From: Escherichia phage vB_EcoM-101117BS1
Sequence record: MZ234018.1
DNA: 64,000 nucleotides
Direction: 5' to 3' (one strand)
Shown: positions 3,329 through 58,591 of the stretch, in pieces
Numbering within the stretch: the stretch's first letter is position 1
How the letters are laid out: each line of letters begins with the position of its first letter
Program-made: the position numbers and the translations under genes
The notes under the pieces: generated by a model
Database searches by the model: none
Told to the model about the DNA's origin: nothing
What the model saw: the letters and a program-made list of their open reading frames with translations, nothing else

Positions 3329-4333
3329 ATGAAAACTCGTTCTCAAATTGAAGATATGGTTCGTAATGCCAGCTATACCCGTAATGTTATGACATTTTTG
3401 TGCCAAAATAATTTAGACCCTGATAGAGTTAATAGTTCCATTCACTTTAAGTATATGAATAGCAGTGAATGGTTACGTCATTTTAGTAAAGCGGGATATA
3501 TTACACAAATGACTGCTCGTGAGCAGCTCACCGATTTCTGTAAAACTATTGATTATAAAAATCCTCTATTTGTTCAAGGCGTTGGTCAGAGTAAGGTCGA
3601 TTTATCAACAGGATTTTTTAATCCAAATCATTATCGTATTGAATGGAGATTTATTGCTCTATTTCGTAAACAATTAAAGCAAATTTTGTCTACTGCTAGT
3701 CGATTAAAAGGCTCTGATATTAACTTAAAGAATCTGAAATTTGATGGTTATACTCTTCAGATGGAAGTAAGACCATTAAAAGAAAATAATAGAACTGCAC
3801 GAATTAGCTTTAAACCTAATACAAAAAATTCTCTTTCAATTTGTGAATGTCTTAAATCACAGTTGACAGAAGCATTTAAGTATATGGATGTTGTTGCTGC
3901 TGTTCAATCTAAGATTTCGCAGCATTTCGAACGATTTAAATTAGATACGACAACATATGAACTTGATATGATCGTTTCATTTAAATATGATTTTTTGAGA
4001 AAGGACGAAGTTACACAAGAGAAAAAACCTGAACCCCAAACTAATTACTCATCAAACGATCCTAAATTTTGGATGTATAGTTCAGATAATAATGATGCAT
4101 GGAAATTTAATAAAGTGAATTTTCTTCCTGTTGAAAATCCGAGTCTTAAACCTGTTGAAAAATGGCACGCTGACGCGATTGAGAAGTCTATCAAGGCAGT
4201 AGATGATGAACTCGTTAAAGCAACTAATGAAGTGTTAGAAGCTGAAAAGATGCTAGAAAAAGCTCAAGAAAAAGTAAAAAATCTCACGAAGCAACGTTCT
4301 AAATTGAACAACGCACTAAATGCACTAAACTAG
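3329..4333 (+). CDS. hypothetical protein with C-terminal coiled-coil-like tail
   Basis: 334-aa ORF; C-terminus KATNEVLEAEKMLEKAQEKVKNLTKQ. Confidence 0.55.
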   Translation: MKTRSQIEDMVRNASYTRNVMTFLCQNNLDPDRVNSSIHFKYMNSSEWLRHFSKAGYITQMTAREQLTDFCKTIDYKNPLFVQGVGQSKVDLSTGFFNPNHYRIEWRFIALFRKQLKQILSTASRLKGSDINLKNLKFDGYTLQMEVRPLKENNRTARISFKPNTKNSLSICECLKSQLTEAFKYMDVVAAVQSKISQHFERFKLDTTTYELDMIVSFKYDFLRKDEVTQEKKPEPQTNYSSNDPKFWMYSSDNNDAWKFNKVNFLPVENPSLKPVEKWHADAIEKSIKAVDDELVKATNEVLEAEKMLEKAQEKVKNLTKQRSKLNNALNALN

Positions 4334-49890: not shown

Positions 49891-52068
49891 ATGATTATCA
49901 CCACTGAAAAAGAAACAATTCTTGGTAATGGTTCTAAATCAAAAGCATTTAGCATCACAGCATCTCCTAAAGTATTTAAAATTCTGTCATCTGATTTGTA
50001 TACAAACAAAATTCGCGCAGTAGTCCGTGAATTGATTACCAACATGATTGATGCCCATGCTCTCAATGGAAATCCTGAAAAATTTATCATACAAGTTCCT
50101 GGACGTTTAGACCCACGATTTGTTTGTCGAGATTTTGGTCCGGGTATGAGTGATTTTGATATTCAAGGTGATGATAATTCTCCTGGGTTGTATAATTCAT
50201 ACTTCAGTTCATCTAAAGCTGAATCTAATGACTTTATTGGCGGATTTGGTTTAGGTTCTAAATCTCCATTTAGTTATACTGATACGTTTAGTATTACTTC
50301 GTATCACAAAGGTGAAATTCGTGGTTATGTAGCTTACATGGATGGCGATGGTCCACAAATTAAACCTACATTCGTAAAAGAAATGGGTCCAGATGATAAA
50401 ACTGGTATTGAAATCGTAGTTCCAGTTGAAGAAAAAGACTTTAGAAACTTTGCTTATGAAGTTTCTTATATCATGCGACCATTCAAAGATTTGGCTATCA
50501 TTAATGGTCTTGACCGCGAAATTGATTATTTTCCGGATTTTGATGATTATTATGGCGTAAATCCAGAAAGATACTGGCCTGATCGCGGTGGATTATATGC
50601 TATCTATGGCGGTATTGTTTATCCTATCGATGGTGTTATTAGAGACCGTAACTGGCTAAGCATTCGCAATGAAGTGAATTACATTAAGTTTCCAATGGGT
50701 TCACTTGATATTGCTCCATCTCGCGAGGCTCTTTCACTGGATGATCGCACTCGTAAAAATATTATTGAACGAGTTAAAGAACTCAGTGAGAAAGCATTTA
50801 ATGAAGATGTAAAACGATTTAAAGAATCTACATCTCCTCGTCATACATATCGTGAATTGATGAAGATGGGGTATTCTGCTCGAGATTATATGATTAGTAA
50901 TTCAGTCAAATTCACGACTAAAAATCTGTCATATAAGAAAATGCAGAGCATGTTTGAACCTGACAGTAAGTTATGTAATGCAGGCGTGGTGTATGAAGTA
51001 AATCTTGACCCTCGACTGAAGCGTATTAAGCAAAGTCATGAAACTTCAGCCGTTGCATCAAGTTATCGTCTGTTTGGTATTAATACGACAAAAATTAATA
51101 TTGTTATTGATAATATTAAAAATCGTGTTAATATTGTCCGTGGATTAGCACGTGCATTAGATGATAGTGAATTTAATAACACCTTAAATATTCATCACAA
51201 TGAGCGTCTTCTGTTTATTAATCCGGAAGTAGAATCACAGATTGATTTGCTTCCTGACATTATGGCGATGTTTGAAAGTGATGAAGTTAACATTCATTAT
51301 TTGTCAGAAATTGAAGCTTTAGTTAAAAGCTATATTCCAAAGGTAGTTAAAAGTAAAGCTCTTCGTCCTAAAGCTGCTACAGCATTTAAATTTGAAATTA
51401 AAGATGGGCGATGGGAAAAAGAGGAACTATTTACACTTACGTCAGAAGCAGATGAAATTACTGGTTATGTAGCGTATATGCATCGTTCTGATATTTTCTC
51501 TATGGATGGTACTACATCGCTTTGTCATCCATCTATGAATATTTTGATTCGTATGGCTAATCTTATTGGCATTAATGAATTTTATGTTATTCGTCCGCTT
51601 TTGCAGAAAAAGGTAAAAGAGCTTTGTCAGTGCCAATGTATTTTTGAAGCTTTACGTGATTTATATGTAGATGCTTTTGATGATGTAGATTATGATAAGT
51701 ATGTAGGTTATTCAAGTTCAGCTCAACGATATATTGATAAAATTATCAAGCATCCTGAACTAGATTTTATGATGAAGTACTTCAGTACAGATGAAGTTTC
51801 TGAAGAATATACACGACTTGGTAATATGGTTAGTTCATTACGCGGTGTATATTTCAACGGTGGAAAAGATACCATCGGTCATGATATCTGGACAGTAACT
51901 AATCTCTTTGATGAATTATCACGTAATGCTTCAAAAAATAGTGATAAAATGGTTGCTGAGTTTACCAAGAAATTCCGTATTGTTTCCGACTTCATCGGTT
52001 ATCGCAACTCTTTAAGTGATGATGAAGTTTCCCAAATCGCTAAAACTATGAAGGCCCTTGCGGCCTAA
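49891..52068 (+). CDS. rIIA: rIIA protein
   Basis: 725 aa; size, position and sequence match T4 rIIA. Confidence 0.9.
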
Positions 52069-52079
52069 TAAGGAAAATT

Positions 52080-53018
52080 ATGTACAATATTAAATGCCTG
52101 ACCAAAAACGAACAATCTGAAATTGTTAAATTGTATTCAAGTGGTAATTACACCCAACAGGAATTGGCTGATTGGCAAGGTGTATCGGTTGACACAATCC
52201 GTCGTGTTTTGAAAAATGCTGAAGAAGCTAAACGCTCTAAAGTTACTATTAGCGGTGATATTACAGTTAAAGTTAATAGCGATGCAGTTATTGCTCCAGT
52301 TGCTAAATCTGACATTATTTGGAATGCATCTAAAAAATTCATTTCAATTACTGTTGACGGTGTAACTTATAACGCAACTCCTAATACTCATTCAAACTTC
52401 CAGGAAATTCTTAATCTGCTTGTAGCGGATAAGCTGGAAGAAGCTGCACAAAAAATTAATGTTCGCCGTGCTGTTGAAAAATATATTTCCGGCGATGTTC
52501 GAATTGAAGGTGGAAGCTTGTTCTATCAAAATATCGAATTGCGGTCTGGTTTGGTTGATCGTATTCTTGACTCGATGGAAAAAGGCGAAAACTTTGAATT
52601 TTATTTTCCGTTCTTGGAAAATCTGCTGGAAAACCCAAGCCAAAAAGCGGTATCTCGACTCTTTGATTTCTTGGTAGCAAACGATATTGAAATTACAGAA
52701 GATGGTTACTTCTATGCTTGGAAAGTAGTTCGCAGCAATTACTTTGACTGTCACTCAAACACCTTTGATAACAGTCCGGGTAAAGTAGTTAAAATGCCGC
52801 GTACTCGTGTGAATGACGATGATACACAAACTTGTTCTCGTGGTCTGCATGTGTGTTCTAAATCTTATATTCGTCACTTCGGTGGTTCAACCAGCCGAGT
52901 TGTAAAAGTTAAAGTACATCCACGCGATGTAGTATCAATTCCGATTGATTACAACGATGCTAAAATGCGTACCTGCCAATACGAAGTAGTTGAAGACGTT
53001 ACTGAACAATTTAAATAA
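52080..53018 (+). CDS. rIIB: rIIB protein
   Basis: 312 aa immediately downstream of rIIA. Confidence 0.9.
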   Translation: MYNIKCLTKNEQSEIVKLYSSGNYTQQELADWQGVSVDTIRRVLKNAEEAKRSKVTISGDITVKVNSDAVIAPVAKSDIIWNASKKFISITVDGVTYNATPNTHSNFQEILNLLVADKLEEAAQKINVRRAVEKYISGDVRIEGGSLFYQNIELRSGLVDRILDSMEKGENFEFYFPFLENLLENPSQKAVSRLFDFLVANDIEITEDGYFYAWKVVRSNYFDCHSNTFDNSPGKVVKMPRTRVNDDDTQTCSRGLHVCSKSYIRHFGGSTSRVVKVKVHPRDVVSIPIDYNDAKMRTCQYEVVEDVTEQFK

Positions 53019-53032
53019 GGGCTTCGGCCCTT
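53017..53032 (+). other. UUCG-loop hairpin after rIIB
   Basis: aagggcttcggccctt, no T-run. Confidence 0.4.
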
Positions 53033-53046
53033 AACTAAGGAAAATT

Positions 53047-53241
53047 ATGTTAGGTTATCAAGCACGAGTAAAAGAAGAATACGATCAATTAATGCTCAAA
53101 ATTAATGCACTGAGTAAATTTTTAGAAAGCACAAAGTTTCTAACGGTTAGTGCAGTTGAGCAAGAACTGCTACTTTCACAGTTCATCTCAATGAAATCTT
53201 ATGCTGAATGTTTAGAGAAAAGAATTGCACAATTCAAATAA
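53047..53241 (+). CDS. hypothetical protein
   Basis: 64-aa ORF. Confidence 0.4.
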   Translation: MLGYQARVKEEYDQLMLKINALSKFLESTKFLTVSAVEQELLLSQFISMKSYAECLEKRIAQFK

Positions 53242-53243
53242 AT

Positions 53244-53267
53244 AAGGGCTTCGGCCCTTTTGTTTTA
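53244..53267 (+). terminator. rho-independent terminator
   Basis: aagggcttcggccctttt followed by gtttt. Confidence 0.55.
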
Positions 53268-53323
53268 AGGGAAACTATGATTTTGTATGAATATCAGTGA
53301 TTCCGACGTAAAAGGAAAGTTTA

Positions 53324-53881
53324 ATGCAGAAAACGAATCCGGGTTTACAGAGACTATTTCAGATTCCGACATTTACCCTATCGAACAGTGACTTGACTAG
53401 TGAAATGAAGGTCAAAATTGCTGATACAGCAAGATACTCTTTAAAACAAAACCCGAACCAGGATAAAGCAGAAGTTATCGAAAGATGCCGTATCGCTGTG
53501 TACGCAGAGTTTTTTGTGGCAGATTGGCTAAGCGGATATGTCAATAAAGGCCAAGAAAATGTCGATGATCCGTACACGTATGCATGGGATGTTTTAGCGC
53601 ATCCAAAATATTGCGGGCTTCGTGTAGAAGTCAAAACACATCAAACTGACTCGCGTTGGATTTCGGTAACAACGGGATGCAGCGGAGAGTATCCATATGG
53701 TTCTGGAATAAATTTAGGGCCCATTCTAAATCATCAAGTCGCTGACTGTATAATTATATTCAACACTAAAGAAATTCATCCAGGTGTCATCCAGTACACT
53801 CCGAAGTTCATCGGTGACAGAGAAGACCTTCGTAGGGTTGTAAGAAAAAGCAACTACAACGGATGGTATCTTTCCATTTAA
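53324..53881 (+). CDS. denB: endonuclease IV DenB-like
   Basis: 185 aa; size and position (between rIIB and ndd) match T4 denB. Confidence 0.6.
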   Translation: MQKTNPGLQRLFQIPTFTLSNSDLTSEMKVKIADTARYSLKQNPNQDKAEVIERCRIAVYAEFFVADWLSGYVNKGQENVDDPYTYAWDVLAHPKYCGLRVEVKTHQTDSRWISVTTGCSGEYPYGSGINLGPILNHQVADCIIIFNTKEIHPGVIQYTPKFIGDREDLRRVVRKSNYNGWYLSI

Positions 53882-53898
53882 AAAAATTTCACAAAACA

Positions 53899-53928
53899 GT
53901 TTACATACCACAAGGACCGTGGTACTAT
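53899..53928 (+). promoter_or_regulatory. T4-type early promoter
   Basis: GTTTAC 53899-53904, 18-bp spacer, TGGTACTAT. Confidence 0.55.
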
Positions 53929-53965
53929 ACAACTATCAACTACTGATACGGATTTGGAGAATAAA

Positions 53966-54229
53966 ATGAAATTTAAATTTTATTACGCTAAACATAAAAT
54001 AACTGATGAGTTTGTGTCAGTTGAATATTCTAGCGATGATGAAGGCATGATTTATACTCGCTTAGGATTATCGCATTGGGAGTCTGATCAGCCTTATTTT
54101 TCAACTCCCGAAGAAATTACACGCTTAATTAATGGTCATATGAATGACCACTGGAATGTAATTCTTTCAGATAGTCTTAAAGCGGCTATTAATAGTAATG
54201 AAATGAAAATCGCTGAGATTGAGCTATGA
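53966..54229 (+). CDS. hypothetical protein
   Basis: 87 aa from ATG 53966. Confidence 0.45.
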   Translation: MKFKFYYAKHKITDEFVSVEYSSDDEGMIYTRLGLSHWESDQPYFSTPEEITRLINGHMNDHWNVILSDSLKAAINSNEMKIAEIEL

Positions 54230-54308
54230 GTTCATTATGGTGGTGTTTTATTTGGTTAATTAGTATTCCAGTAATTTGTTTAACATTTACTTTTGTAATG
54301 AGGTTATT

Positions 54309-54407
54309 ATGAAAATTTTGAATTCTGTACTTATTGCTTGCGCGTGGTGGGTTGCACAGGTTTCAGCGGTAGTAGTTGGTATTCACATTTATTACGAATA
54401 TTTTTAA
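54309..54407 (+). CDS. tiny hydrophobic protein
   Basis: 32-aa ORF with one predicted TM segment. Confidence 0.3.
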   Translation: MKILNSVLIACAWWVAQVSAVVVGIHIYYEYF

Positions 54408-54414
54408 AAAAGTT

Positions 54415-54444
54415 GTTTACAAGACTGTTCTTCCGTGGTATTAT
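54415..54444 (+). promoter_or_regulatory. T4-type early promoter
   Basis: GTTTAC 54415-54420, 18-bp spacer, TGGTATTAT. Confidence 0.55.
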
Positions 54445-54472
54445 TACTCTATCAACTACGGAGGAACAGAAA

Positions 54473-54586
54473 ATGAAAAAGATTATTAAAGCTATATGGA
54501 ATGTAGTTATAATATTAATAGTTTTGAGTATATTCCCAATCGTTTTAATGATTGATGTATTAAACGCTTACTTTGGATTTATGTGA
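54473..54586 (+). CDS. tiny hydrophobic protein
   Basis: 37-aa ORF after GGAGGAACAGAAA leader. Confidence 0.35.
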   Translation: MKKIIKAIWNVVIILIVLSIFPIVLMIDVLNAYFGFM

Positions 54587-54593
54587 GGAAAAT

Positions 54594-54791
54594 ATGAAGC
54601 GTAAACGCAGTGCTTTTACATTTATTGAATGGTTTTTCGATAATATTTTTCCGGCTTTATTCATTTTCATGCTGATTTTTGCGCTAGGTTCAGTTGTAGT
54701 TGGAATCTATTTGATGGCAGTAGTCGGAATGGATATTCATCAAAATGGTTTAAAATCCGTAGTTGAAACAATTTGGAATGGTGTAAAATGA
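54594..54791 (+). CDS. small membrane protein
   Basis: 65 aa from ATG 54594 after GAGGAAAA SD. Confidence 0.4.
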   Translation: MKRKRSAFTFIEWFFDNIFPALFIFMLIFALGSVVVGIYLMAVVGMDIHQNGLKSVVETIWNGVK

Positions 54792-54898
54792 TGAATTTAC
54801 TAAACATTTGGTTTTATATTCTTATGTTTTACATTGGTGCAAATTTTCCGTATTGGATGGGATGGTCAACAACTGCATTTGGATTTTATACTCCTTGA
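54788..54898 (+). CDS. tiny hydrophobic protein
   Basis: 36-aa ORF overlapping previous stop. Confidence 0.3.
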   Translation: MMNLLNIWFYILMFYIGANFPYWMGWSTTAFGFYTP

Positions 54899-54906
54899 GG
54901 TGAATT

Positions 54907-55122
54907 ATGAAAATCTTTAAAGATGTAAAAGTTGGTGAAATTTTCTGTTTAGATAACGGTGATCAGTTAATTCGTATTTCACCTCTTAAGAGCACCAGCG
55001 AGAAAATGACAGTTAACGCTACTTTAGCAAATAACAGTAATGAACGTTTCTGTATTGAAAATGATACTGAAACTTATACTGTAGAAGAGTTTTGGGAATT
55101 GAGCGTCGACTGCGACGATTAA
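54907..55122 (+). CDS. hypothetical protein
   Basis: 71-aa ORF. Confidence 0.45.
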   Translation: MKIFKDVKVGEIFCLDNGDQLIRISPLKSTSEKMTVNATLANNSNERFCIENDTETYTVEEFWELSVDCDD

Positions 55123-55182
55123 TTTATCGGGCCGTATGTATTCATGCGGCCTTGGAGTAGAAAATAATTAGAGGAAATTAAC

Positions 55183-55638
55183 ATGAAATATATGACTGTT
55201 ACTGATTTGAATAATGCAGGCGCAACTGTTATTGGTACAATCAAGGGCGGTGAATGGGTTTTTGGAACTCCGCATAAAGACATTTTGTCTAACCCTGGAT
55301 TTTACTTTTTAGTGAGCAAATTTGGTGGTCCATTTGATAGTCCGTGTGTATCTGCACGATTTTATGTAGGTAATCAGCGTTCTAAACAAGGGTTCAGTGC
55401 AGTTCTAAGTCATATTCGTCAGCGTCGGTCTCAGCTTGCGCGTACTATTGCAAATAACAATGTTCCATACACAGTATTTTATCTTCCTGCTTCTAAGATG
55501 AAACCTTTGACGACAGGATTTGGAAAAGGTCAGTTAGCTTTGGCGTTTACTCGTAATCATCATTCTGAGTATCAAACGCTTGAAGAAATGAACCGTATGT
55601 TGGCTGATAACTTTAAATTTGTTTTGCAGGCATACTAA
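55183..55638 (+). CDS. ndd: nucleoid disruption protein Ndd
   Basis: 151 aa; size and position match T4 ndd. Confidence 0.75.
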
Positions 55639-55811
55639 TGAAAGCTCTATTTGTAATGGGTTACCTATTAGTTTTAGCCTTATTCACATTGACTGGAATC
55701 TTTACGGCTTTAGGTCTACCTCTTAATGATAATGTGGCTGTCGTGATGTGTGTAGGTGGCGGATTTATCTGTTTTGAACGTTTATGCAAAATGTGTGGTG
55801 TGTATGAGTAA
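55638..55811 (+). CDS. small membrane protein
   Basis: 57-aa hydrophobic ORF overlapping ndd stop. Confidence 0.35.
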
Positions 55812-55884
55812 TTTCCATAACGAACATGTGATGCAGTTCTATCGTAACAATCTTAAAACCAAAGGCGTCTTCGGACGCCAGTGA
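55804..55884 (+). CDS. stp: Stp peptide (activator of host PrrC anticodon nuclease via EcoprrI)
   Basis: 26-aa [29 protein letters not shown], matching T4 Stp as recalled. Confidence 0.7.
55864..55879 (+). other. UUCG-loop hairpin inside stp coding sequence
   Basis: ggcgtcttcggacgcc. Confidence 0.45.
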
Positions 55885-55891
55885 GGAAAAT

Positions 55892-56047
55892 ATGAAATTT
55901 GTTCACGGTATAGCCTTTTTCTGTTGGTTCTTTTTATGCATCGGAACAGTAATAACCGGAGAAACTTCAGTATTTTTGCAAGCATCAGCTCAGGGCGTAT
56001 TAGCGATTTTATCATTATTCGCGTACATTGGTTCTAAAAATAGTTGA
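55892..56047 (+). CDS. ac: Ac-like small membrane protein (acridine sensitivity)
   Basis: 51-aa hydrophobic ORF between ndd and 52; size matches T4 Ac. Confidence 0.55.
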   Translation: MKFVHGIAFFCWFFLCIGTVITGETSVFLQASAQGVLAILSLFAYIGSKNS

Positions 56048-56057
56048 GGAGAATATT

Positions 56058-56216
56058 ATGAATATCGCAAAATTATTAGGAGTTATTTCATTTATTTGTT
56101 GGATAGTAGCATGTGTTTTAACTATCTGTATCGATGCTAGCAGTGTGTTTTCACAAGCTTTAGCCCAGGGTATGTGTGCATATTTAACATTTGTGTTGTT
56201 ATCTACTAATGATTAA
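56058..56216 (+). CDS. small membrane protein
   Basis: 52 aa from ATG 56058. Confidence 0.4.
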   Translation: MNIAKLLGVISFICWIVACVLTICIDASSVFSQALAQGMCAYLTFVLLSTND

Positions 56217-56349
56217 GAAAATCTTGGGCTATTCATTAGCCCTTGCTACTTTATTAGTAGCACTATATTATGGAGTAATGTTCGGATTAATTCAAGTCGT
56301 GCTTTTCATTTCTGATGTTATTATGGCACTACATTCACTAGTATGGTAA
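56209..56349 (+). CDS. small membrane protein
   Basis: 46-aa hydrophobic ORF. Confidence 0.3.
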   Translation: MIKKILGYSLALATLLVALYYGVMFGLIQVVLFISDVIMALHSLVW

Positions 56350-56353
56350 ATTT

Positions 56354-57682
56354 ATGCAACTGAATAATCGCGATTTAAAAAGTATCATTGATAATGAAGC
56401 ATTGGCTTATGCTATGTACACGGTTGAAAATCGTGCTATTCCAAATATGATTGATGGATTTAAGCCAGTTCAACGATTTGTTATTGCTCGAGCTCTTGAT
56501 TTGGCACGAGGAAATAAAGATAAGTTTCACAAACTCGCTTCTATTGCAGGTGGTGTAGCGGACCTTGGATATCATCATGGTGAAAACTCTGCGCAAGACG
56601 CAGGTGCTTTGATGGCTAACACTTGGAATAATAACTTTCCTCTGTTAGATGGTCAAGGAAACTTCGGTTCTCGTACTGTCCAAAAGGCAGCAGCAAGTCG
56701 TTATATTTTTGCTCGTGTAAGTAAAAATTTCTATAACGTATATAAAGATACTGAATATGCTCCGGTACATCAAGATAAAGAACACATTCCGCCTGCTTTC
56801 TATTTGCCTATTATTCCTACTGTTCTTCTTAATGGCGTTTCCGGTATTGCAACTGGTTATGCAACTTACATTCTTCCTCATAGTGTTTCTTCTGTTAAGA
56901 AAGCTGTACTGCAAGCTCTTCAAGGAAAGAAAGTAACTAAACCGAAGGTAGAATTCCCAGAATTTCGTGGTGAAGTCGTTGAAATTGATGGGCAATATGA
57001 AATTCGTGGAACATATAAGTTTACTTCACGAACTCAAATGCATATCACTGAGATTCCGTATAAGTATGATCGTGAAACTTACGTGAGTAAAATCTTAGAC
57101 CCACTTGAAGATAAAGGCTTCATTACATGGGATGATGCTTGCGGTGAGCACGGTTTTGGATTCAAAGTTAAATTCCGCAAAGAATATTCTTTGAGCGATA
57201 ATGAAGAAGAACGCCATGCAAAAATTATGAAAGACTTCGGGTTGATTGAGCGTCGTTCTCAGAATATTACGGTTATTAATGAGAAAGGAAAACTGCAAGT
57301 TTACGATAACGTAGTTGATTTAATCAAAGACTTCGTCGAAGTTCGTAAAACTTATGTCCAAAAACGAATTGATAACAAAATTAAAGAAACTGAGTCAGCT
57401 TTTCGTTTAGCCTTTGCCAAGGCACATTTCATTAAGAAAGTAATTTCAGGTGAAATTGTTGTACAGGGTAAAACTCGTAAAGAACTGACCGAAGAACTTT
57501 CGAAAATCGATATGTATTCTTCTTATGTTGATAAACTAGTTGGAATGAATATTTTTCATATGACTTCCGACGAAGCAAAGAAACTTGCTGAAGAAGCTAA
57601 AGCTAAAAAAGAAGAAAACGAATATTGGAAAACTACTGATGTAGTTACTGAATACACCAAAGATTTAGAGGAAATCAAATGA
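56354..57682 (+). CDS. 52: DNA topoisomerase II medium subunit gp52 (gyrase A-like)
   Basis: 442 aa; matches T4 gp52. Confidence 0.9.
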   Translation: MQLNNRDLKSIIDNEALAYAMYTVENRAIPNMIDGFKPVQRFVIARALDLARGNKDKFHKLASIAGGVADLGYHHGENSAQDAGALMANTWNNNFPLLDGQGNFGSRTVQKAAASRYIFARVSKNFYNVYKDTEYAPVHQDKEHIPPAFYLPIIPTVLLNGVSGIATGYATYILPHSVSSVKKAVLQALQGKKVTKPKVEFPEFRGEVVEIDGQYEIRGTYKFTSRTQMHITEIPYKYDRETYVSKILDPLEDKGFITWDDACGEHGFGFKVKFRKEYSLSDNEEERHAKIMKDFGLIERRSQNITVINEKGKLQVYDNVVDLIKDFVEVRKTYVQKRIDNKIKETESAFRLAFAKAHFIKKVISGEIVVQGKTRKELTEELSKIDMYSSYVDKLVGMNIFHMTSDEAKKLAEEAKAKKEENEYWKTTDVVTEYTKDLEEIK

Positions 57683-57828
57683 GTCCATTCATTGGTATTA
57701 CAAGCGCTGCATTAGTATCTGGTAGCATTTTACTGGCGGGTTTAGGCGTTGTTCCAGCAGTAGCAGGAGGTCTTCTTGCGTTCGGCATTCAACGTGTTAT
57801 CATGACAGTTATCACAGTCATGCAGTAA
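57679..57828 (+). CDS. small membrane protein
   Basis: 49-aa Gly/Ala-rich hydrophobic ORF overlapping gene 52 stop. Confidence 0.35.
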   Translation: MSPFIGITSAALVSGSILLAGLGVVPAVAGGLLAFGIQRVIMTVITVMQ

Positions 57829-57833
57829 TTTTA

Positions 57834-57862
57834 GGGAGAGCCGAGGCTCTCCCTTTTTTATT
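57834..57862 (+). terminator. rho-independent terminator
   Basis: gggagagccgaggctctccc hairpin followed by ttttttatttt. Confidence 0.6.
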
Positions 57863-57884
57863 TTAAAATTTTTTTCACAAAACG

Positions 57885-57914
57885 GTTTACAACCAAAGCA
57901 TACTGTGGTACTAT
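57885..57914 (+). promoter_or_regulatory. T4-type early promoter of motA
   Basis: GTTTAC 57885-57890, 18-bp spacer, TGGTACTAT. Confidence 0.6.
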
Positions 57915-57955
57915 ACAACTATCAACTACTGATACAGAATTACGGAGATTAGAAA

Positions 57956-58591
57956 ATGTCTAAAGTAACTTACATCATCAAAGCTTCTAACGATGTTCTG
58001 AATGAAAAAACTGCTGCGATTTTAATTACCATTGCTAAGAAAGATTTCATTACAGCTGCGGAAGTTCGTGAGGTGCATCCAGATTTAGGTAACGCAGTAG
58101 TTAATAGTAATATTGGGGTGTTGATTAAAAAAGGCCTGGTGGAGAAATCTGGTGATGGATTAATCATTACTGGTGAAGCTCAGGATATTATTTCAAATGC
58201 AGCAACTTTATACGCGCAAGAAAATGCTCCGGAACTACTGAAAAAACGAGCAACTCGTAAAGCTCGTGAGATTACTTCTGATATGGAAGAAGATAAAGAC
58301 CTCATGTTAAAACTTTTAGATGAAAATGGATTTGTTCTTAAAAAGGTCGAAACTTATCGCAGTAACTATCTCGCTATTTTAGAAAAACGCACTCACGGAA
58401 TTCGTAATTTTGAAATTAACAACAATGGAAATATGCGAATTTTTGGATACAAAATGATGGAACATCATATTCAGAAATTTACTGACATCGGAATGTCATG
58501 TAAAATCGCTAAAAACGGTAATGTGTATCTTGACATTAAACGCTCGGCAGAAAACATTGAAGCTGTAATCACTGTAGCATCTGAACTGTGA
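57956..58591 (+). CDS. motA: middle-transcription activator MotA
   Basis: 211 aa; matches T4 MotA. Confidence 0.9.
   Translation: MSKVTYIIKASNDVLNEKTAAILITIAKKDFITAAEVREVHPDLGNAVVNSNIGVLIKKGLVEKSGDGLIITGEAQDIISNAATLYAQENAPELLKKRATRKAREITSDMEEDKDLMLKLLDENGFVLKKVETYRSNYLAILEKRTHGIRNFEINNNGNMRIFGYKMMEHHIQKFTDIGMSCKIAKNGNVYLDIKRSAENIEAVITVASEL

Follow-up and report, generated by a model that had tools for sequence, protein, structure and literature searches.

The run of very small genes around ndd in Escherichia phage vB_EcoM-101117BS1 is the known T4-type early micro-gene cluster, already named and catalogued. It most probably represents an immediate-early accessory block, lying between denB and the topoisomerase gene 52 in T-even phages, whose membrane peptides would act as conditional host-takeover or host-range factors. 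The window, that is the whole stretch of 64,000 nucleotides analysed, belongs to a Tequatrovirus (T4-like) genome. Between positions 54226 and 56349 it carries 12 closely spaced plus-strand genes, ten of which encode products of 26-65 aa (ndd.6, ndd.5, ndd.4, ndd.3/2a, ndd.2, orf57, ac1, ac2, 52.1 and stp), the remaining two being ndd.1 (71 aa) and ndd (151 aa). The first-pass annotation had described at least eight packed ORFs of 26-65 aa between 54309 and 56349; there are nine on the plus strand, and the tiling lies beyond all 500 shuffled controls. The cluster is real, but genes of the same kind extend outside that range, namely ndd.6 (54226-54312) and motA.1 (57679-57828). The block and its surroundings comprise the following features:

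53899-53935, plus strand: early promoter P1, T4-type (GTTTACA, 17 nt, TGGTACTAT), upstream of orfX87 and ndd.6, from a consensus scan
53966-54229, plus strand: orfX87, 87 aa, soluble, opening the P1 unit and overlapping the ndd.6 start with its stop; absent from T4
54226-54312, plus strand: ndd.6, 28 aa, predicted single hydrophobic helix; 96% identity to T4 ndd.6; phrog_8851, E 2e-17; dN/dS 0.10
54309-54407, plus strand: ndd.5, 32 aa, predicted single hydrophobic helix; 100% identity to T4 ndd.5; phrog_5011, E 4e-26; dN/dS 0.07
54415-54451, plus strand: early promoter P2, T4-type (GTTTACA, 17 nt, TGGTATTAT), between ndd.5 and ndd.4, from a consensus scan
54473-54586, plus strand: ndd.4, 37 aa, predicted single strongly hydrophobic helix; 97% identity to T4; phrog_3098
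54594-54791, plus strand: ndd.3/ndd.2a, single intact 65-aa gene; Pfam DUF7248, E 4e-20; phrog_2401; dN/dS 0.09
54788-54898, plus strand: ndd.2, 36 aa, uncharged, aromatic-rich; 91% identity to T4; phrog_4135; dN/dS 0.08
54907-55122, plus strand: ndd.1, 71 aa, soluble, acidic C-terminus; 97% identity to T4; dN/dS 0.09
55129-55152, plus strand: 10-bp RNA hairpin between ndd.1 and ndd; -17.3 kcal/mol, z-score -4.6; no T-run downstream
55183-55638, plus strand: ndd, nucleoid disruption protein, 151 aa; 95% identity to T4 Ndd
55638-55811, plus strand: orf57, 57 aa, predicted two-helix hairpin; phrog_5941, E 2e-27; absent from T4
55804-55884, plus strand: stp, 26 aa, soluble; 100% identity to T4 Stp; dN/dS 0.06
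55864-55879, plus strand: hairpin GGCGUC(UUCG)GACGCC within the 3' end of stp, right before the ac1 ribosome-binding site
55892-56047, plus strand: ac1, 51 aa, predicted second Ac-type hairpin protein; phrog_2501, E 4.9e-26, full length; no T4 copy
56058-56216, plus strand: ac2, T4 Ac ortholog, 52 aa, predicted two-helix hairpin; 96% identity to T4 Ac; phrog_2501, E 3.7e-25, full length; dN/dS 0.02
56209-56349, plus strand: 52.1, 46 aa, predicted single long hydrophobic helix; 97% identity to T4; Pfam DUF7396, E 3.5e-23
57679-57828, plus strand: motA.1, 49 aa, hydrophobic; 100% identity to T4 motA.1; dN/dS 0.06; start overlapping the gene 52 stop

The region matches 768 phage records, almost all of them T4-like, with a top identity of 97.5%. 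It lies directly downstream of rIIB (52080-53018) and keeps the T4 synteny on a single strand, from denB through ndd.6 to ndd.1, ndd, stp, ac and 52.1 to gene 52. T4 orthologs at 91-100% protein identity exist for ndd.6, ndd.5, ndd.4, ndd.3/2a, ndd.2, ndd.1, ndd, stp, ac2 and 52.1; comparison with the T4 proteins gave none for orfX87, orf57 and ac1. Set against the denB-52 early region of T4 (NC_000866: ndd.6, ndd.5, ndd.4, ndd.3, ndd.2a, ndd.2, ndd.1, ndd, stp, ac, 52.1), gene order, strand logic and the two early promoters are the same, whereas orfX87 (53966-54229), orf57 (55638-55811) and the second Ac-type gene (55892-56047) are additional, and ndd.3/2a is an intact 65-aa ORF where the T4 reference has a 1-bp deletion. 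Every ORF matches a PHROG profile (E < 1e-16), and three Pfam families are matched: DUF7248 by ndd.3/2a (71.9 bits, cut-off 27), PF08133 (Nuclease_act) by Stp (75.3 bits, cut-off 25, residues 1-26 of 26) and DUF7396 by 52.1 (81.9 bits, cut-off 27, residues 1-46 of 46). Stp and Ac had been singled out at first as recognisable and the rest as uncharacterised. Both are recognisable, as is ndd, but there are two Ac-type genes, the ortholog at 56058-56216 (96%) and a paralog at 55892-56047; the others are uncharacterised as to function, but all are named T4 genes or members of PHROG or Pfam families. Local novelties are small and consist of orf57 and the second Ac type, which have no T4 counterpart, the gene combination, and the T4 ndd.3/ndd.2a split. 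As to the combination, no record among 50,697 phage records holds orf57, stp, ac1 and ac2 contiguously.

The architecture is that of coupled genes. ATGA overlaps join orfX87 to ndd.6, ndd.6 to ndd.5, ndd.3/2a to ndd.2 and gene 52 to motA.1, the ndd/orf57 junction is TAATG, and 8-nt overlaps link orf57 with stp and ac2 with 52.1; ribosome-binding sites or coupled starts are present at the ORFs. This bears out the overlapping stops and starts noted in the first-pass annotation, and its claim of an early promoter belonging to the cluster also stands, with P2 (54415-54451) inside the cluster and P1 (53899-53935) as a further one. Both fit the T4 early type (sigma-70, AT-rich upstream), with a GTTTAC -35 element, a 17-nt spacer and an extended -10 element TGGTAnnAT. 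Over 67 nt, P1 agrees fully (100%) with a promoter that the T4D record X75802 places at 1017-1053; P2, the top-scoring promoter-like site (10/12 matches, TG extension), is 95.5% identical over 67 nt to the one annotated at 1296-1332 of the same record. The two sigma-70 promoters would drive the run of translationally coupled plus-strand genes. Supplementary file 4 of PMC9697503 assigns all block genes of T4 to the 'early' class of RNAs.

Several lines of evidence bear on the coding status of the small ORFs. Plus-strand ORFs tile 0.94 of 54226-56349, compared with 0.30 +/- 0.10 in dinucleotide shuffles, and eight membrane-like small ORFs are observed against 1.3 +/- 1.2; none of 500 shuffles reaches either value. 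ORF coverage of the minus strand is 0.28, with one membrane-like small ORF; the ORFs on this strand, which lie inside plus-strand genes and tile at shuffle level, were rejected as candidates. Across 16 Tequatrovirus genomes ORF lengths are near-identical, the exceptions being the ndd.3 frameshift of the T4 reference, one ndd.6 read-through and variants of 1-5 codons in ndd.2, ndd, stp and the Ac genes, and variable sites cluster at third codon positions (9 of 10 in ndd.5). In-frame dN/dS is 0.02-0.23 within Tequatrovirus, ndd.4 excepted, and 0.07-0.53 across genera; the other two frames give values from about 0.2 to more than 2, with inconsistent constraint. For ndd.4 the value within Tequatrovirus is 1.06, derived from only 7 variable sites, and 0.09-0.21 across genera, at about 58% identity. 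Homologs are retained at 30-60% identity in other genera despite saturated synonymous sites. As judged from these substitution patterns, in a sample of 47 loci out of roughly 770 related genomes, the ten micro-genes are shown to be under purifying selection, ndd.4 being constrained in the cross-genus comparisons only. A lack of reading-frame conservation among related phages, raised at the outset as possible grounds for doubt, is not what we find: the frames are kept and selected. Ndd and Ndd.1 are the sole block proteins detected by T4 proteomics, Ndd.1 being seen early (PMC9697503 supplement), and a literature search found no T4 ribosome-profiling paper.

With membrane-like defined as a Kyte-Doolittle 19-aa window of at least 1.6, ndd.6, ndd.5, ndd.4, ndd.3/2a, orf57, ac1, ac2, 52.1 and motA.1 are clearly membrane-like. 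ndd.2 is borderline (1.29), with no charged residues and many aromatics, and Stp (GRAVY -1.03), ndd.1 and ndd are non-hydrophobic. Nine of the ten micro-genes are thereby shown to encode hydrophobic peptides, predicted to be alpha-helical. On hydropathy and two AlphaFold2 models built with little or no alignment (orf57: helices 2-24 and 31-52, pLDDT 71; 52.1: helix 2-45, pLDDT 94.5), some six of them appear to cross the membrane once, and ac1, ac2 and orf57 appear to form two-helix hairpins. The initial picture of hydrophobic, mostly single-pass peptides is correct for most members, but Stp is soluble and basic, and the three apparent hairpins depart from it. Despite their common character the families are distinct: in all-vs-all hhalign comparisons of the micro-ORF families every pair stayed below 4% probability, no better than reversed-sequence controls, which rules out a single superfamily arising by tandem duplication, the ac1/ac2 pair excepted. 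Single-linkage blastp clustering without composition correction fused 52.1, ndd.4 and ndd.3/2a into one family; the hhalign comparison with reversed controls identifies this merger as a hydrophobic-composition artefact and the three as unrelated.

Among the upstream members, orfX87 occurs in 11 of 16 Tequatrovirus loci (dN/dS 0.15) and has left a remnant of 8 codons in T4. Homologs of ndd.6 in other genera share a WC.IW..IP.IC.CF motif, and ndd.2 keeps G.N.PYW.GW across genera; ndd.5 is limited to Tequatrovirus among the loci compared. The ndd.3/2a protein has a basic N-terminus, one long predicted helix and a conserved polar C-tail, NGLKSVVETIWNG. In the T4 reference the 1-bp deletion follows ATGAA and splits the gene, which is annotated intact in T4T; T4 ndd.3 and ndd.2a are the halves of one frameshifted 65-aa gene.

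Downstream of ndd, orf57 was found by tblastn in 221 of 50,697 phage records, adjoining ndd in every row inspected, and in 22 of the 36 related ndd loci from IMG/VR. A word-index protein search returned only 3 clusters, the index being insensitive for 57-aa hydrophobic queries, and tblastn performed far better. The orf57 protein has a conserved tail motif, FERLxxxxGVYK, and the gene a dN/dS of 0.27-0.53. Stp has the same 26 aa, in identical sequence, as the anticodon nuclease activator of T4, but its context differs: here stp follows orf57 with an 8-nt overlap, whereas T4 stp abuts the ndd stop codon. T4 Stp is known to inhibit EcoprrI, a type IC restriction enzyme, and in this way unleashes the anticodon nuclease PrrC (PMC1484252). 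The two Ac-type proteins are 43% identical over 40 aa (E 6e-10; about 42% overall) and share with T4 Ac (phrog_2501) a D/E-[AT]-S-S-V-x-S-Q-A-x-A-Q core flanked by two hydrophobic segments. Unlike T4, the window carries them as tandem paralogs; ac1 has a 100% identical copy in FriedrichZschokke, and its type substitutes for the T4 type as the sole Ac in Shfl2 and wV7. A 2025 survey of Ac was limited to BLASTN homologs at 93-100% identity (bioRxiv 10.1101/2025.06.30.662393), so that the divergent ac1 type lies outside its coverage. The most widely conserved micro-ORF of the block is 52.1, at 89-93% identity in other T-even lineages in which gp52 is at 69-81%.

Published work on T4 gives the functional frame. 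Ndd disrupts the host nucleoid, and Ac leads to acridine accumulation in cells, most likely by blocking AcrAB-TolC efflux (bioRxiv 10.1101/2025.06.30.662393; PMC13250531). The efflux link was proposed from phenotype and structure prediction, and the demonstration that Ac confers acridine sensitivity covers T4 Ac only (bioRxiv 10.1101/2025.06.30.662393); as cited there, Miller et al. 2003 placed ac in one of three membrane-protein gene clusters of T4. According to supplementary file 15 of PMC11879866, CRISPRi-ART in T4 scores 52.1, ac, stp, ndd and ndd.1-ndd.6 as 'Not Fit' and gene 52 as 'Fit'. Knocking down the block genes carries no fitness cost, and T4 can dispense with them in laboratory E. 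coli. In the first minutes of infection the remaining peptides would insert into the inner membrane of the host. Each would bind one particular membrane protein there, of the host or of a prophage, and act as a conditional host-takeover or host-range factor. We infer specific partners from the conserved polar or aromatic motif of each family, the lack of relatedness between families, and the cassette-like gain and loss among T-even genera. Bacterial small membrane proteins are known to regulate transporters, as AcrZ does by binding AcrB. AcrZ-type proteins are similar in size and helical membrane character and in the proposed binding to a large inner-membrane machine, but AcrZ tunes its pump and phage Ac would inhibit it, which makes the likeness one of mechanism by analogy rather than membership. 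T4 Imm, Sp, RI and RIIA/RIIB are likewise early, non-essential, membrane-associated and conditionally required (in part from PMC11879866); no homology to the block peptides was detected, and these proteins are larger (about 80-700 aa), with defined phenotypes.

In this context, the uncharacterised members might, instead of modulating host physiology, act in conflicts among phages or with prophages, by superinfection exclusion or by blocking membrane-bound abortive-infection effectors, as T4 Imm, Sp and RII do. The position directly downstream of rIIB, whose product counters RexAB (PMC11879866), speaks for this, as do dispensability in laboratory strains and a content that varies by cassette exchange among genera, typical of conflict genes: the orf57-stp segment is 95-100% identical to that of another locus (L036), though the ndd of that locus is just 64% identical. 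Pfam and PHROGs, however, give no match to a known anti-defence or exclusion protein, and the idea overlaps our main explanation, from which it differs in target class only; we consider it unlikely as a separate account.

Returning to conditional host-takeover factors, a more far-reaching reading, which we hold to be rather unlikely, is that the slot between ndd and gene 52 is a swappable cassette array of unrelated one- or two-helix micro-proteins (about 45-60 aa). Each would specifically inhibit a different host inner-membrane machine, RND efflux pumps and membrane-bound defence effectors being examples. Its occupants would be the T4-type Ac, the ac1 type, a 'GVWVPS' family of other genera, orf57 and 52.1. 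Phages would stack or exchange such cassettes to match their hosts, this phage holding both Ac types and orf57.

It was also suggested from the sequence that some peptides could be membrane-targeting toxins or inhibitors, for which published support is confined to Ac, sensitising E. coli to acriflavine (bioRxiv 10.1101/2025.06.30.662393). In its non-specific form, with holin- or type I toxin-like peptides depolarising or permeabilising the host during early shut-off, this seems quite improbable. Short, very hydrophobic helices under immediate-early promoters would suit such a role, and early work took Ac to make the membrane more permeable to acridines (Silver, 1960s, as cited in bioRxiv 10.1101/2025.06.30.662393). 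Each family nevertheless retains its motif in distant relatives (SV.SQ..AQ in Ac, FER....GVYK in orf57, PYW.GW in ndd.2), which argues for specific contacts. The effects of Ac expression are emphasised as drug-dependent, with about 3-log colony loss with acriflavine and 4-log with ampicillin (bioRxiv 10.1101/2025.06.30.662393), T4 knock-downs carry no fitness cost, and a phage dependent on an energised host for about 25 min would be harmed by early lethal depolarisation.

Far less probable still is that the region owes its importance chiefly to its nucleic acid, as a replication origin, as regulatory RNA or through processing signals, with the ORFs incidental. Stable hairpins do occur, some of them capped by C(UUCG)G tetraloops. 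The hairpin at 55129-55152 is the counterpart of the stem_loop annotated at 2009-2030 of X75802, and the one at the stp 3' end (-12.2 kcal/mol for a folded 40-nt stretch) has an identical sequence in T4, read from a guide-RNA sequence (PMC11879866 supplement). Yet selection is frame-specific and acts at the protein level, and an Rfam scan of 52000-58000 gave no family at threshold, its lone sub-threshold match, to CrcZ, being taken as chance at 22.6 bits, far under the gathering score of 95. The replication-origin idea was rejected because T4 oriA lies near soc, elsewhere than the block (PMC3016281). Finally, that most small ORFs arose by chance in early DNA rich in T and in A+T, its T-rich codons encoding hydrophobic residues, leaving ndd, stp and ac as the only genes, fits the composition (34.6% G+C, 37% T) and the peptides missed by T4 proteomics but is refuted, as far as sequence analysis reaches, by the tiling and membrane-like counts, which the minus strand does not repeat, the preserved lengths and third-position variation, the cross-genus homologs at saturated synonymous sites, and the ribosome-binding sites or coupled starts.

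The cluster is textbook T4 genome content, and its rediscovery adds little. As might be expected from the first-pass remark that most of the ORFs fall below usual annotation thresholds, many GenBank records omit or misname them. In T6 (NC_054907) ndd.6, ndd.5, stp, ac and 52.1 are unannotated, and ndd.4 is labelled 'naphthalene 1,2-dioxygenase' in GenBank annotation; block genes are called inconsistently, with nonsense names propagated in many records, and T4 ndd.3 and ndd.2a are best read as a single gene. What value remains lies in about ten membrane micro-proteins of the best-studied phage that are conserved, under selection and expressed early, and among which a partner has been proposed for Ac alone (efflux). 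If the cassette array exists, it would amount to a compact natural collection of peptides that inhibit bacterial membrane complexes. If the peptides turned out to block host membrane machines specifically, the role put forward for Ac against AcrAB-TolC, they could serve as starting points for inhibiting efflux and would help to explain host range.

Over 53300-57300, 768 phage records match the window by megablast, almost all of them T4-like, the best being Escherichia phage FriedrichZschokke at 97.5% identity. From that record and the annotated T4 reference region we built a one-to-one plus-strand gene map, in which orfX87, orf57, ac1 and ac2 are working labels of this analysis.

Plus-strand genes of the rIIB-motA.1 region
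52080-53018, plus, rIIB, 312 aa
53047-53241, plus, denB.1, 64 aa
53324-53881, plus, denB, 185 aa
53966-54229, plus, orfX87, 87 aa
54226-54312, plus, ndd.6, 28 aa
54309-54407, plus, ndd.5, 32 aa
54473-54586, plus, ndd.4, 37 aa
54594-54791, plus, ndd.3/2a, 65 aa
54788-54898, plus, ndd.2, 36 aa
54907-55122, plus, ndd.1, 71 aa
55183-55638, plus, ndd, 151 aa
55638-55811, plus, orf57, 57 aa
55804-55884, plus, stp, 26 aa
55892-56047, plus, ac1, 51 aa
56058-56216, plus, ac2, 52 aa
56209-56349, plus, 52.1, 46 aa
56354-57682, plus, gene 52, 442 aa
57679-57828, plus, motA.1, 49 aa

The dense packing that the first-pass annotation described for 54309-56349 is borne out: nine ORFs of 26-65 aa lie there, together with ndd.1 and ndd. 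So are the overlapping stops and starts, with junctions sharing ATGA, TAATG or 8 nt; at non-overlapping junctions the upstream stop codon sits within the next ribosome-binding site (TGAGGAAAATATG). Plus-strand ORFs tile 0.94 of 54226-56349, against 0.30 ± 0.10 in 500 dinucleotide shuffles, and eight small ORFs are membrane-like, against 1.3 ± 1.2; neither value was attained by any of the 500 shuffles, which the minus strand resembles in both respects.

Forty-seven related loci were compared, comprising 11 phages (T4, T4T, T2, T6, RB9, Shfl2, Sf24, wV7, teqskov, FriedrichZschokke and a Dhakavirus) and 36 IMG/VR T4-like contigs. Frame conservation, set beforehand as the test, holds: across 16 Tequatrovirus genomes all micro-ORFs are open and near-identical in length, apart from the T4 reference ndd.3, one ndd.6 read-through, and 1-5-codon variants of ndd.2, ndd, stp and the Ac genes. 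Within the genus their in-frame dN/dS is 0.02-0.23 (pooled Nei-Gojobori), comparable to ndd itself (0.07); the two other frames give ~0.2 to >2, without consistent constraint. The exception is ndd.4, whose value of 1.06 rests on seven variable sites; compared with other genera (58-59% identity) it gives 0.09-0.21. Both orf57 and ac1 are likewise constrained (0.27-0.53). Conserved frames and purifying dN/dS thus remove the ground, absent frame conservation, on which the ORFs could have been set aside.

Hydropathy marks ndd.6, ndd.5, ndd.4, ndd.3/2a, orf57, ac1, ac2, 52.1 and motA.1 as membrane-like. The hydrophobic character proposed for the micro-ORF products therefore applies to most of them but not to Stp, which is soluble, as are ndd.1 and Ndd; ndd.2, uncharged and aromatic-rich, is borderline. 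For 52.1 a single helix (2-45, pLDDT 94.5) is predicted, and for orf57 a helix-loop-helix.

The region has two early promoters of the T4 type, 53899-53935 and 54415-54451, which over 67 nt are 100% and 95.5% identical, respectively, to promoters annotated in X75802, the T4D ndd record. The early promoter attributed to the cluster is the second one, which serves ndd.4 onward; ndd.6 and ndd.5 are part of the unit upstream of it. A 10-bp hairpin (55129-55152) is the counterpart of the X75802 stem-loop preceding the ndd ribosome-binding site. Three hairpins with C(UUCG)G tetraloops resemble the classic, stable hairpins of T4 mRNAs: 53017-53032 after rIIB, 53244-53259 after denB.1 and followed by a T-run, and 55864-55879 within the last stp codons, directly upstream of the ribosome-binding site of ac1. 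Every T4 early promoter is accompanied by short ORFs that start with MVSFHLKKF on the plus strand and MYSTTV on the minus strand, in the window at 53863-53946 and 57742-57918 (minus strand); we rejected them as genes, since they are translated promoter consensus.

The micro-ORF cluster is already known. Stp and Ac were rightly recognised, but the rest are not uncharacterised as families: each micro-ORF matches a PHROG family full-length, and Pfam holds ndd.3/2a (DUF7248) and 52.1 (DUF7396) besides Stp (PF08133). In T4, 52.1, ac, stp, ndd.2-ndd.6 and motA.1 appear as early RNAs with protein undetected, and Ndd and Ndd.1 early as RNA and protein (PMC9697503 supplement). CRISPRi-ART knock-downs of the cluster genes in T4 had no fitness effect, while gene 52 was required (PMC11879866). 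According to a 2025 preprint (bioRxiv 10.1101/2025.06.30.662393), T4 has three clusters of genes for predicted membrane proteins, one of which contains ac. The preprint reports that Ac expression makes E. coli sensitive to both acriflavine and ampicillin, and its authors propose a block of AcrAB-TolC by Ac, a view repeated in a 2026 PNAS paper (PMC13250531). Stp has an established role as an EcoprrI inhibitor that so activates PrrC (PMC1484252). As anticipated, micro-ORFs often escape annotation, ndd.6, stp, ac or 52.1 being missing from many GenBank records. Nonsense product names for micro-ORFs have also propagated in related records (L042-L047 and match lists): 'naphthalene 1,2-dioxygenase' for the 37-aa ndd.4, 'chaperone for long tail fiber formation' for ndd.2, 'putative baseplate wedge subunit' and 'sugar ABC transporter permease'.

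Several features differ from T4. The T4 genes ndd.3 (26 aa) and ndd.2a (40 aa), annotated separately, are halves of one conserved 65-aa gene (DUF7248), split in NC_000866 by a 1-bp deletion right after ATGAA (166432-166628 versus 54594-54791 in the window); the protein annotated as 'ndd.3' in T4 is translated out of frame and is a PHROGs singleton, and the T4T annotation keeps the gene intact. T4 lost orfX87 by exact deletion between two AATGAAA repeats, leaving an 8-codon mini-ORF, MKIAEIEL, whose stop still overlaps the ndd.6 start (coupled). In some records (e.g. Shfl2) orfX87 is given an earlier start, so that it runs across the promoter and reaches 120 aa. T4 also lacks orf57, which occurs in 221 of 50,697 phage genomes and 22 of the 36 IMG/VR loci, adjoins ndd in every inspected match, and has a conserved tail (FER....GVYK). 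The T4 Ac ortholog is ac2; its paralog ac1 (43% identical over 40 aa) is the sole Ac type in Shfl2 and wV7, and both occur together in FriedrichZschokke and the window. No record in the phage collection (50,697 records) covers more than 84% of 55500-56360, so the combination orf57, stp, ac1 and ac2 is not represented there.

Related loci differ, cassette by cassette, in the genes they carry between denB and gene 52. The orf57-stp segment (55638-55884) is 95-100% identical (dS ~0.1) to 3441-3684 of locus L036, whose ndd is just 64% identical to that of the window, and stp DNA is 96.7% identical in Dhakavirus dhabil (L048, 1501-1592), where it is unannotated. Together these similarities indicate that very short segments have recently been exchanged laterally, the orf57-stp cassette measuring ~250 bp. 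In non-Tequatrovirus T-even phages the Ac slot (stp or orf57 to 52.1) holds a 'GVWVPS' hairpin family (L007-L038; 46-70 aa, turn motif G[VA]W[VIT]P[SG]), with no relation to Ac detected by hhalign; other genera carry additional hydrophobic families elsewhere. Profile-profile comparison found no relation among the micro-ORF families above reversed-sequence background, which rules out repeated duplication of one gene as origin of the array.

The first-pass observation is confirmed and its interpretation partly supported. The present analysis shows what the genes are, that they are coding, which promoters they have and that the products are helical and hydrophobic; early transcription, dispensability and the activities of Stp, Ndd and Ac are taken from published work. 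Family-specific conserved motifs and cassette turnover suggest that the remaining peptides would be inserted in the inner membrane early in infection, each engaging its own specific membrane target. Exclusion or anti-defence roles, a conflict-gene variant, are reasonably likely and the only rival still plausible; non-specific membrane toxins, chance ORFs and RNA-level function are not among the reasonably likely explanations. What is added to the known cluster is confined to the points on annotation and the unusual occurrence of orf57 stacked with both Ac types.
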